Below are positions 7,097 to 31,821 of a stretch of 32,000 nt of DNA, one piece after another. The notes below the pieces were generated by a model. The model was given only the letters and a program-made list of their open reading frames with translations, was not told the origin of the DNA and did not search any database. How positions within the stretch are numbered: the stretch's first letter is position 1; every line of letters begins with the position of its first letter. A program made the position numbers and the translations under genes. Source of the DNA: Candidatus Nanosynbacter sp. BB002 (GTDB lineage: Bacteria > Patescibacteriota > Saccharimonadia > Saccharimonadales > Saccharimonadaceae); the NCBI RefSeq assembly GCF_037013405.1, contig NZ_CP146064.1, positions 240,001 through 272,000 of the forward strand. Reading direction: 5' to 3'.

Positions 7097-7183
7097 GCCG
7101 CGGTGGCGGAATTGGTAGACGCGCTAGACTCAAAATCTGGTGAGCAATAGCTCGTGCCGGTTCAAGTCCGGCCCGCGGTACCA
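7097..7183 (+). tRNA. tRNA-Leu (anticodon CAA), class II with long variable arm, CCA encoded
   Basis: The acceptor pairs GCCGCGG with CCGCGGU. The D loop is AATTGGTAG. The anticodon stem is CTAGA/TCTGG with loop CTCAAAA. The variable arm is GAGC-AAT-GCTC and the T arm is GCCGG-TTCAAGT-CCGGC. The discriminator is A, followed by CCA. Confidence 0.93.
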
Positions 7184-30830: not shown

Positions 30831-30872
30831 CAAAGGAGAAAACCCCTCACTCTCGCCATTGAGAATGAGGGG
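30831..30872 (-). terminator. Strong rho-independent terminator closing the noncoding locus upstream of the dus promoter
   Basis: The minus-strand RNA reads CCCCUCA-U-UCUC-AAUGGC-GAGA-G-UGAGGGG followed by UUUUCUCCUUU. The stem arms are at 30843-30849 and 30866-30872. Confidence 0.75.
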
Positions 30873-30988
30873 CGTTGGTGGGCTCAAGCGGTTCTGCTCG
30901 GAGTTGATCTCGACGGTGAGAAAAACTGCCACGAGTGAATCTCGCGAACCCGGGGAGGGAGAGATGACACTCCATTGTGCCATCTCAG

Positions 30989-31058
30989 TGGATGTGACGG
31001 GAGTCGAACCCGCGAGACGGTGGACTTCGATTGTCCTGTCTCCCTACTTGGCACACCC
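30989..31058 (-). ncRNA. tRNA-like element with an alanine-type acceptor stem but truncated D arm and non-canonical anticodon arm
   Basis: The minus strand reads GGGUGUG-CC-AAGUAGGGAGACA-GGAC-AAUCGAA-GUCC-ACCGUCUC-GCGGG-UUCGACU-CCCGU-CACAUCC-A. It has a 7-bp acceptor with G3:U70 and A73, and a canonical T arm/loop. Only about 15 nt occupy the D-arm region, the anticodon-like stem has 4 bp, and position 33 is A rather than U. Confidence 0.4.
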
Positions 31059-31260
31059 TGACCATTCTGTGTTGAAAACATTGGTCTTCTCGATGTAGCG
31101 GTATACACCTGCTTTGTTTTGTTGTACGTCATTGGACCACAAAACAAAGGTGAGAAGTCAATGAAACTCAGGCGGAGTGGTGAAACACCCAAGTTTTTTC
31201 GCTTACACACGGCTTTACACGGGTGATGAGTCCGTGTGGCTGCGCATGCAACCGCGACGG

Positions 31261-31349
31261 CGGACACAGCGGGACTCGAACCCGCAGCCTCCCGTTGCGT
31301 CGACACCGTTGTCGACGCGGGCGCTCTGCCATTTAAGAGCTATATGTCC
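31261..31349 (-). ncRNA. tRNA-shaped element with canonical acceptor, D and T arms but a 12-bp extended helix and hexaloop instead of an anticodon arm
   Basis: The minus strand reads GGACAUA-UA-GCUC-UUAAAUGGCA-GAGC-G-CCCG-C-GCGUCGAC-AACGGU-GUCGACGC-AA-CGGG-AGGCU-GCGGG-UUCGAGU-CCCGC-UGUGUCC-G. It has a 5-nt variable loop like class I tRNAs. The anticodon position holds 14 extra nt, and I could find no 7-nt loop with U33. Confidence 0.4.
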
Positions 31350-31673
31350 TGTGATTCTTTTCTGGGCTACCAGCTGGGCGAATCACCCCAGGGGCGGACA
31401 GACGCCCTTTACTGACCGTGGGGGTCAGTGGTTTCGGGGTCGCACAAACCCCGACTGTCAAACCTCTACCAGTGGAGCTTCCTGGGACGGTCGCTCCGAC
31501 CTGTGGCCGCGTTTTCTATGGCCTGCTTCTCGAGCAGGATCGCGTAGAGGCAGTTGAGAGTTTCTCGCGGCGCTTTATGTTTGCAGGCATACTCATAGTC
31601 TTCCTGCGCACGGCGTCGCTCATCGGTCTGGTTTCCAGCCAAGGGTCTCACCCCCTTTCCGCCGCAGTTGCGG

Positions 31674-31771
31674 CAAAAGAAAAAGAGCTAACCCTCTCTC
31701 GAACCACGCTTTTGTGCGAAGCATGGTCAGGATTTGACGCCATTTGCGGCGTCAAATCGAGAAGTTAGCTC
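31674..31771 (-). ncRNA. 5' three-way-junction module followed by a U-tract (riboswitch/attenuator-like, or a ~115-nt sRNA)
   Basis: In the minus-strand RNA the closing helix pairs GAGCUAAC (31764-31771) with GUUAGCUC (31685-31692). It encloses hairpin GAUUUGACGCC-GCAAAU-GGCGUCAAAUC (31731-31758) and hairpin CCAUGC...GCGUGG (31704-31726). UUUUUCUUUUG (31674-31684) follows. Confidence 0.4.
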
Positions 31772-31792
31772 CACGAACAAAAGCTAGTGAAT

Positions 31793-31821
31793 ATCATAAC
31801 ACGAACTGTAAAAAATAGCAA
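31793..31821 (-). promoter_or_regulatory. Sigma-70-type promoter (TTGCTA-17-TATGAT) at the 5' end of the noncoding locus
   Basis: On the minus strand, TTGCTA is the complement of 31816-31821 and TATGAT is the complement of 31793-31798, with a 17-nt spacer. The promoter lies just downstream of the stop of the flanking partial CDS. Confidence 0.5.

Follow-up and report, generated by a model that had tools for sequence, protein, structure and literature searches.

What does the gap of about 1 kb in front of dus encode in Candidatus Nanosynbacter sp. BB002? The gap lies in the 32,000-nt window that we analyzed (contig NZ_CP146064.1, positions 240,001 to 272,000), and all coordinates given here are positions in this window. 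It extends from the stop codon of a minus-strand neighbor (31839) to the dus start codon (30812), and all features of the locus are on the minus strand. In relatives, the gene upstream of the gap encodes a 958-aa UvrD/AddA-like helicase-nuclease. A first-pass annotation, made by reading the DNA without database searches, had described the gap as a noncoding locus giving rise to a large RNA or to processed small RNAs. Conserved structured RNA with compensatory changes indeed makes up ~80% of the unit, and tRNA-like elements are found where processing signals would sit, but 177 nt are coding. We propose that the locus encodes a riboregulated, cassette-like mRNA for a small, strain-variable protein, carried on a conserved RNA chassis, with tRNA-like elements that would be cut by tRNA-processing enzymes, and we give this reading a probability of about one half. 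In this reading, the locus forms a single minus-strand transcription unit, between the helicase-nuclease gene and dus, of an oral Nanosynbacter-like Saccharibacterium.

Results

A probable small-protein gene in the gap

A search with the adjacent Dus protein as a query resulted in 80 loci, every one of them from Saccharibacteria/Nanosynbacter, with Dus identities of 70-99%. These 80 Dus-anchored loci, individually named by L-numbers, served as the homolog set. When the locus was compared with them by blastn, conserved blocks alternated with segments that had been replaced outright.

One of the variable segments is an open reading frame (ORF). In the window, the extended Shine-Dalgarno (SD) sequence GGAAAGGGGGUGA is followed by an ORF that starts with TTG at 31642, ends with a TAG stop codon at 31468-31466, and encodes 58 amino acids (31466..31642, minus strand; MAGNQTDERRRAQEDYEYACKHKAPRETLNCLYAILLEKQAIENAATGRSDRPRKLHW). 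The first-pass annotation had seen neither a credible ORF nor a ribosome-binding site here, which the homologs contradict. A start codon and an ORF of 48-60 codons lie 3-9 nt downstream of a purine-rich box, G(A/G)nGG(G/A)GGUGA, in more than 50 loci; we take this box to be approximately the full complement of the usual 16S rRNA 3' tail. The slot holds at least seven mutually unrelated ORF families. Within families, differences at third codon positions exceed those at first and second positions 2-5 fold (for families A, B, C, and F, codon-position differences are, e.g., [16,7,30], [6,5,30], [5,5,17], and [7,6,18]), and frame and length survive 30-50 substitutions. The same 58-aa protein was predicted independently by gene callers in other projects. 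Judged by its SD sequence, its slot, and its codon bias, the 58-aa ORF is almost certainly a real gene under coding selection.

Given the conservation of these 177 nt with 3-nt periodicity, the locus is not purely noncoding and is not a single RNA of the GOLLD or ROOL type, which had been suggested for the locus. Substitutions that preserve an ORF had been named in advance as the observation that would count against a noncoding RNA, and for the 177 nt this is what the homologs contain. CCUGC-UCGAGAA-GCAGG, which had been listed among the hairpins of the RNA, lies inside the 58-aa ORF.

All ORF families are hydrophilic, with C-termini that include KLHW, HFMV, LLPRK, RFGKR, LQGKK, and GGKNA. Three families have paired CxxC motifs in a zinc-ribbon or DnaJ-like arrangement, and the others are predicted to be, or appear, helical. 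The AlphaFold model of the window's protein is a soluble two-helix hairpin (predicted local distance difference test score, 81), and a structure search with this helical-hairpin model gave no match at E < 0.5. Pfam and NCBIfam scans with nine of the small proteins identified no significant family, with weak resemblance to zinc ribbons, DnaJ-CxxCxGxG, and anti-TRAP, and the relatives retrieved in protein searches with ORF families A and F were all near-identical, with none outside the clade. Family F (L034, L059, L062, and L065) has 50 aa and two CxxCxGxG motifs; its weak resemblance to the DnaJ cysteine-rich domain and to anti-TRAP RtpA is not significant (E 0.03-0.06). The consensus promoter scan also returned a plus-strand promoter-like site, TTGAGA-16-TATGTT, at 31554-31581, inside the small ORF and antisense to it.

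A conserved leader and a putative translational switch

The gene is preceded by a 5' leader (31684..31784, minus strand) that begins with the conserved 5' end GCUUUUGU and folds into a three-way junction. Its helices are P1 (GGAGCUAAC/GUUAGCUCU), P2 with the loop GCAAAU, and P3 (CAUGCUU-CGCACAA-AAGCGUG). In an alignment of 32 distinct leader sequences (alignment A1), 95.8% of the cells of the junction are paired, compared with 45-51% when the partners are slid. Twenty-one pairs are altered on both sides, a value reached by 0/500 shuffles. The leader is a conserved multi-helix domain backed by covariation, and the three-way junction with a U/C tract that the first-pass annotation had drawn is present in the homologs. 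The 5' end GCUUUUGU, the GCAC of the P3 loop, and the SD sequence are invariant across the alignment. The leader had no Rfam match at E up to 10 and matches no described riboswitch class.

The segment at 31648..31687 (minus strand) has the makings of an expression platform. It consists of the pyrimidine tract CUCUUUUUCUUUU (a candidate anti-SD), the hairpin GCCGC-AACU-GCGGC, and the extended SD sequence of 10-11 nt at 31660-31648. The hairpin between anti-SD and SD covaries. In 32/32 leaders, the C/U tract downstream of P1 can base-pair with the AAAGGGG of the SD sequence, mostly by U-A or U-G pairs, and the first bases of the tract, CUC, alternatively extend P1 (GGAGC:GCUCU, 93% paired). The anti-SD helix overlaps the P1 extension and the two pairings are mutually exclusive, as would be expected of a translational switch. 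A switch is what we infer, because neither of the competing helices has decisive changes on both sides, and we put the chance that the leader acts as one at roughly even.

Other pairings of the leader were considered. The 5' end GCUUUUGU (31777-31784) can pair with ACAAAAGC (31708-31715) in the 3' half of P3, replacing P3. This alternative helix is 96.5% paired in the 32 leaders with no both-sided changes; it is compatible with the data but unproven. An 8-bp pairing proposed earlier, GUGGAGCU with AGCUCCAC, exists but appears to be coincidental, as it is lost in relatives that keep the leader with another ORF family. A perfect 9-nt complementarity between the leader and the spacer described below (31756-31764 with 31086-31094) is probably due to chance, as relatives do not keep it.

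Loop complementarity between the leader and the 3' untranslated region

Three hairpins follow the small ORF in the 3' untranslated region (UTR; 31392..31454, minus strand): H1 at 31454-31434 with the loop UUGUGCG, H2 at 31429-31411, and H3 at 31407-31392. H1 and H3 covary, and the H2 stem is retained in variants of differing sequence. Three helices picked out by eye in the first-pass annotation, GCCGC/GCGGC, UCGGGGU/ACCCCGA, and ACUGACC/GGUCAGU, are real and conserved in homologs.

The 7-nt loop of H1 is exactly complementary to the 7-nt loop of leader P3, CGCACAA, and including neighboring bases the complementarity comprises 9 nt (31448-31440 with 31719-31711). Loops of the UCGCACAAA/UUUGUGCGA type, with 8-9 Watson-Crick pairs, are present in 26 loci. 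A second leader type, found in 7 loci, has UGCACG/CGUGCA; the types share the GCAC/GUGC core, and the positions on either side of it covary. ORF family C is found together with each of the two matched loop sets. The loop match and the covarying flanks across locus types argue for a kissing contact between the 5' UTR and the 3' UTR. We consider the chances that this contact is functional to be about equal either way.

The hairpins are followed by an H-type pseudoknot (31353..31391, minus strand) with the stems S1 (CUGGG/CCCAG) and S2 (GAUUC/GAAUC), which ends 3 nt before the first tRNA-like element. Between the stems lie an optional hairpin, CUGG-UAGC-CCAG, and an A-rich tract. S1 also occurs as CUGGC/GCCAG, UCGGC/GCCGA, and CUGGU/ACCAG, and both-sided changes are seen in S1 as well as in the inserted hairpin. 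GUGAUUC/GAAUCAC had been noted as a hairpin; the pairing is real, but it is not a plain hairpin and instead represents stem 2 of the pseudoknot.

tRNA-like elements after the pseudoknot

The first-pass annotation had recognized two tRNA-shaped modules, and both are present. Element a (31261..31349, minus strand) consists of a 7-bp acceptor stem, D and T arms, and a 12-bp rod with a tetraloop in place of the anticodon arm; its discriminator is G and it encodes no CCA. It scored 42.3 bits with the Rfam tRNA model (RF00005; gathering threshold, 29), with a 23-nt insertion in the anticodon arm, and ARAGORN annotated 31259-31349 as tRNA-Ser(CGA). In orthologs of element a, the anticodon stem drawn by ARAGORN is 0-62% paired versus 97.9% for a tetraloop-capped 9-bp rod, which is also the minimum free energy (MFE) structure. 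Read as tRNA-Ser(CGA), the element would have a C instead of a purine at position 37, and it lacks an anticodon arm with a 5-bp stem and a 7-nt loop. Element b (30986..31058, minus strand) has the acceptor stem GGGUGUG/CACAUCC with G3:U70, A73, a T arm, and a long arm with the loop AAUCGAA, and is without a proper D arm. It gave no Rfam tRNA match at E up to 10 and scored 28.6 bits with the Rfam tmRNA model (RF00023; gathering threshold, 47), which aligned to the acceptor stem and T arm only. Element a is followed by CCG and element b by CUG, so neither encodes CCA. For internal comparison we used the one genuine tRNA of the window, an ordinary tRNA-Leu(CAA) (7097-7183, plus strand) that has a long variable arm and whose CCA is encoded in the genome.

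Among the homologs, 59 loci have a conserved GAAAAGAAUCA that closes the pseudoknot and then a tRNA-shaped element within 3 nt. Nearly all of the 66 distinct elements have 7/7 acceptor pairs, 5/5 T-stem pairs, and the loop GGUUCGAnUCC. The stems covary, for example as GGGUGUG/CACAUCC, GGACGCG/CGCGUCC, GGACAUA/UGUGUCC, GGGCGUG/CACGCUC, and GAGGG/CCCUC. The remainder of the molecule is of at least 12 unrelated types of body, and ARAGORN identified orthologous elements as Ser, Val, Arg, selenocysteine, Trp, Phe, Leu, "???", or nothing at all. Position 3:70 holds G-U, A-U, or G-C, and both A and G occur as the discriminator, so that no aminoacylation identity is conserved; element b and about a third of the orthologs have G3:U70 itself, which element a and the remaining orthologs lack. 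Together, these observations suggest that the tRNA-like elements very probably do not decode. Features used by RNase P, RNase Z, and the CCA-adding enzyme are kept and those used by synthetases and the ribosome are not, which, together with the position of the elements, points to the punctuation model. We regard a role as processing signals as possible, at slightly less than even odds.

No Rfam family covers the locus: Rfam scans and ARAGORN in tmRNA mode gave only tRNA and partial tmRNA-model matches. At the gathering threshold, Rfam searches of the window and 16 loci returned only the tRNA match at 31261-31349; in E-value mode, searches of the locus and of L008 returned nothing beyond the tRNA and tmRNA minihelix matches. 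ARAGORN found no tmRNA in the window or in 60 loci. By these comparisons, no module of the locus belongs to any Rfam family, and none is a decoding tRNA or a tmRNA. A literature search for tRNA-like elements or tmRNA in Saccharibacteria found nothing relevant.

A mosaic of conserved and exchanged segments

Leader type, ORF family, tRNA-like body, and the apex of a 3' rod (described below) assort largely independently among the homologs, which share Dus identities of 70-99%. This independent assortment and the swapped slots suggest a conserved chassis with exchangeable inserts. Only the clade of the window, comprising 14 loci, has an extra spacer of ~200 nt and a second tRNA-like element. The site between the rod/terminator and dus is a variable hotspot by comparison of the loci.

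On 14 further metagenome contigs, pseudoknot, tRNA-like element, and rod follow one another as they do here. These were identified in a pattern scan in which 14/120 rows were genuine, the rest being mostly chance tRNA matches. A link to phages was not apparent: the whole locus had no match in phage genomes by blastn, and the leader motif was absent from viral contigs. Ten viral matches to a 17-mer of the rod lacked the rod context and were dismissed as chance.

Two loci have a gene inserted between the rod/terminator and dus. L012 contains a Fic-domain gene with the motif HPFSDGNGRTGR (L012:3069-3989) and L026 a gene for a membrane protein of 214 aa (L026:3345-3989).

Spacer, rod, and boundaries of the unit

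In the clade of the window, the alignment of the 14 loci defines a noncoding spacer RNA of ~200 nt between the two tRNA-like elements (31059..31260, minus strand). The spacer is conserved in its 5' half and includes, at 31149-31112, a long hairpin that is variable. The 11-bp hairpin previously noted between the modules is present, with 11-14 bp. An antisense ORF of 21 codons with a site resembling a ribosome-binding site was rejected, as indels shift its frame among the 14 relatives. Element b is followed by a predicted trailer hairpin, GAGAUGGCAC-AAUGGA-GUGUCAUCUC (30961..30986, minus strand), which in homologs follows elements with an "A-CUGAG" trailer.

Next comes a conserved rod of ~72 nt, GGGUUCGCGAG...CUCCGAGCAGAACCGCUUGAGCCC, with a variable apical hairpin (30880..30951, minus strand; 68 distinct loci). 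The consensus fold of alignment A4 is an irregular rod with 9 pairs altered on both sides. Both-sided changes in L040 (20-78) and L068 (30-70 and 32-68) back the long-range pairs of the rod over a local hairpin, CGCGAG/CUCGUG. The latter had been read as a weak terminator; it is part of the conserved rod, and the U-run is absent in many lineages. Where inserted genes separate the rod from dus, the rod stays beside the tRNA-like element, and we thus assign it to the unit and not to dus. In homologs, N-CCA (ACCA, GCCA, or UCCA) often follows the rod ahead of the terminator stem (30872-30880, minus strand); it is frequent but not invariant. A third tRNA-like element built on this NCCA-like tail was considered and rejected, as the tail is inconsistent and RNAalifold and the both-sided changes favor the rod.

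A consensus scan identified a sigma-70-like promoter, TTGCTA-17-TATGAT with an extended TG (31793..31821, minus strand), and, together with folding, an intrinsic terminator of the unit (30832..30873, minus strand; 30873-30842 in the scan) with a 13-bp stem and the U-tract UUUUCUCCUUU. Both are the promoter and strong terminator of the first-pass annotation. Homologs have equivalent -35/-10 boxes upstream of the conserved GCUUUUGU, as judged by eye, and the terminator is kept with stem variants. The transcript probably starts near 31784-31788. Transcription from the minus strand, argued earlier, agrees with the orientation of the promoter, SD sequence, ORF, tRNA-like elements, and terminator, and with conserved pairs that are often G-U.

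Every sub-segment of the locus folds better than dinucleotide shuffles, with MFE z scores of -1.8 to -6.7 (leader, -6.7; 3' UTR, -3.1; tRNA-like elements, -3.1 and -2.1; 3' part, -5.5). Homologs show compensatory changes in the helices, as expected for the helical locus described in the first-pass annotation, and we consider it highly likely from the comparative data that the helices listed here exist. The locus had also been described as richer in GC than neighboring intergenic DNA. This applies to the promoter spacer of ~100 nt, which is all that the locus exceeds; its GC content of 0.51-0.62 equals that of the flanking coding DNA.

Discussion

In the model that we propose, the leader switch would gate translation, with the CUC of the pyrimidine tract pairing either with P1 or with the SD sequence. 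Stabilization of the junction would free a very strong SD sequence, and such stabilization might come from a ligand, from temperature, or from the kissing contact of the two UTRs. The non-decoding tRNA-like elements would serve as punctuation marks for RNase P and RNase Z, and a cut 5' of element a would leave an mRNA 3' end capped by the pseudoknot. In the clade of the window, the cuts would also free the ~200-nt spacer RNA and a 3' fragment with rod and terminator. The protein slot would be swapped by recombination between conserved flanks. The full combination, in which tRNA mimics of the candidate phyla radiation (CPR) punctuate a chromosomal structured-RNA operon for RNase P and RNase Z, a hypervariable mRNA is capped by the pseudoknot and gated by a three-way-junction riboregulator with 3' UTR kissing, and spacer and rod are released as small RNAs, is a tentative proposal that we would not expect to hold in every part.

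Several observations weigh against this model. Processing at the tRNA-like elements is argued from position and conserved features. In L008, L017, L018, and L058 the tRNA-like slot is filled by a different structured RNA of ~190 nt, so the tRNA shape is not indispensable; in L008 (L008:3676-3862) this RNA, which matches no Rfam family, has a predicted four-way-junction fold (MFE, -73.3 kcal/mol; z, -3.9). Neither the anti-SD helix nor the alternative helix of the 5' end has pairs changed on both sides; their positions are invariant or altered on one side only. Riboswitches normally control functionally related genes, and the ORFs downstream of this leader are unrelated. The covariation of the kissing loops amounts to about two independent types, and the flanks may simply be co-inherited; L065, the one exception to the loop match, has the type I leader joined to an H1 loop without GUGC. 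Finally, S2 of the pseudoknot is paired in 26/26 sequences with wobble-preserving changes only.

We considered other explanations for the locus. The tRNA-like elements could be functionless remnants, either decaying tRNA genes or scars of recombination or integration, in a locus that consists of a small gene and folding junk. The hotspot character of the region would fit, as close relatives differ in ORF family, tRNA-like body, and extra genes, some lineages miss the tRNA-like element, and the clade of the window looks as if it had gained ~270 nt (spacer plus element b) by insertion or duplication. However, a decaying gene should lose its acceptor and T-arm features first, and their retention counts against decay: both stems remain fully paired despite many changes, and 59 loci with differing bodies retain the T loop GGUUCGAnUCC. 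Moreover, the element is always located 2-3 nt after the conserved pseudoknot, and the module borders coincide with the ends of the tRNA-like elements, with L024 joining the body of a to the trailer of b. We consider remnants unlikely. The reading of the first-pass annotation, a purely noncoding large structured RNA with an incidental ORF, draws on the ~80% of the unit that is structured RNA without an Rfam match. It is hard to reconcile with the third-position bias in four ORF families, the preserved frame and length, the extended SD sequence at a fixed spacing from the start codon, and the wholesale replacement of the ORF segment by unrelated ORFs with no conservation of its internal hairpins, and we regard it as extremely improbable.

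Two further alternatives give the mRNA or the tRNA-like elements a different function. A locked mRNA like that of the type I toxin hok would be kept inert by SD sequestration and 5'-3' pairing and activated by 3' processing, and the variable ORFs would encode toxins. The small ORF with an SD sequence that is always paired, the loop complementarity of the UTRs, the processing signals downstream, and the hypervariable, lineage-restricted nature of the locus are as such a system would predict, but the ORF families consist throughout of hydrophilic proteins, either helical hairpins or zinc ribbons, and none is a membrane peptide. No antisense RNA is evident from the consensus promoter scan alone, which gave the one plus-strand promoter-like site at 31554-31581, and the sole antisense ORF, located in the spacer, is not conserved. 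A toxin system of this kind is, in our view, quite unlikely. Very unlikely, too, is that the elements are charged adaptors, such as tmRNA-like rescue RNAs or carriers of aminoacyl groups (e.g., Ala via G3:U70) for non-ribosomal use. G3:U70 and A73 in element b and about a third of the orthologs would suit this role, as would a 3' half that resembles the tmRNA consensus and the pseudoknot and ORF upstream as in tmRNA. Against it, the acceptor strands are adjacent (73 nt) and not at the two ends of an RNA, the ORF has its own SD sequence and start codon with 7 unrelated "tags", ARAGORN found no tmRNA and the Rfam score stayed at 28.6 versus 47, and CCA is usually not encoded and no aminoacylation identity conserved.

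By analogy, the proposed riboregulated mRNA most resembles three kinds of known systems: tRNA-like processing signals that adjoin a protective 3' structure, riboregulators that sequester the SD sequence, and mRNAs whose 5' and 3' UTRs communicate. tRNA-like 3'-end processing is known from plant mitochondrial t-elements, the mitochondrial tRNA punctuation model, and MALAT1/MEN-beta with mascRNA. Like t-elements and mascRNA, the elements described here are non-decoding, tRNA-shaped, and border another RNA, with a conserved acceptor/T minihelix, and as in MALAT1 a compact protective structure lies just upstream, here a pseudoknot with an A-rich tract and there a triple helix. Unlike them, the elements reside on a bacterial chromosome after the mRNA of a small protein, their cleavage is predicted, their bodies are extremely diverse between strains, and in some lineages another RNA takes the slot. 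tmRNA likewise combines an ORF, a pseudoknot, and a tRNA-like domain on one RNA, and element b resembles it in its T arm and 3' strand as well as in G3:U70 and A73. However, in tmRNA (~300-400 nt) the ends of the molecule form the tRNA-like domain around the tag ORF, whereas here 73-91 nt span both acceptor strands, leaving the ORF outside, upstream, with an SD sequence and start codon and no conserved tag or C-terminal degron. The 3' tRNA-like structures of plant viruses (turnip yellow, tobacco, and brome mosaic viruses) also have a pseudoknot and then a tRNA-like fold in the 3' region of an mRNA, and viral cap-independent translation elements use a long-distance loop-loop match between 5' and 3' UTRs. 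The plant-virus structures differ from this cellular bacterial gene, in which more RNA and a terminator follow the tRNA-like element instead of its forming the 3' terminus.

For the leader, translational riboswitches and fourU/ROSE thermometers are the closest comparison: downstream of a conserved junction, a U/C tract can pair with the SD sequence through many U-A/U-G pairs, and this putative SD pairing would exclude the closing helix of the junction, as in SD-sequestering riboregulators. Unlike these, the leader has no Rfam match and precedes unrelated small proteins instead of a coherent regulon or heat-shock genes. The hok/sok, icaR, and hbs mRNAs are similar in having a small ORF, tight folding, communicating UTRs, and possible 3' processing; they differ from the locus in its hydrophilic proteins, the lack of an evident antisense RNA, and a loop-loop kiss in place of end pairing.

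If the model is correct, the locus would be a bacterial case of tRNA mimics that act as RNA-processing punctuation, and thus a bacterial counterpart of MALAT1-mascRNA and the plant mitochondrial t-elements. It would also provide a natural example of kissing between the 5' and 3' UTRs of a very short mRNA and new conserved RNA motifs without an Rfam family, namely, the leader junction, the pseudoknot, the rod, and the alternative four-way junction. For genome annotation, pipelines may be expected to predict false tRNA-Ser, tRNA-Val, or tRNA-Arg genes at the locus and to overlook the small gene. Saccharibacteria are ultrasmall epibionts with genomes of ~0.7 Mb, in which a conserved unit of ~1 kb, four-fifths of it structured RNA, is unlikely to be idle. 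The unit would offer these bacteria a recombining slot for orphan small proteins such as zinc ribbons and helical hairpins, and protein diversity of this kind usually marks genes for conflict or host interaction.

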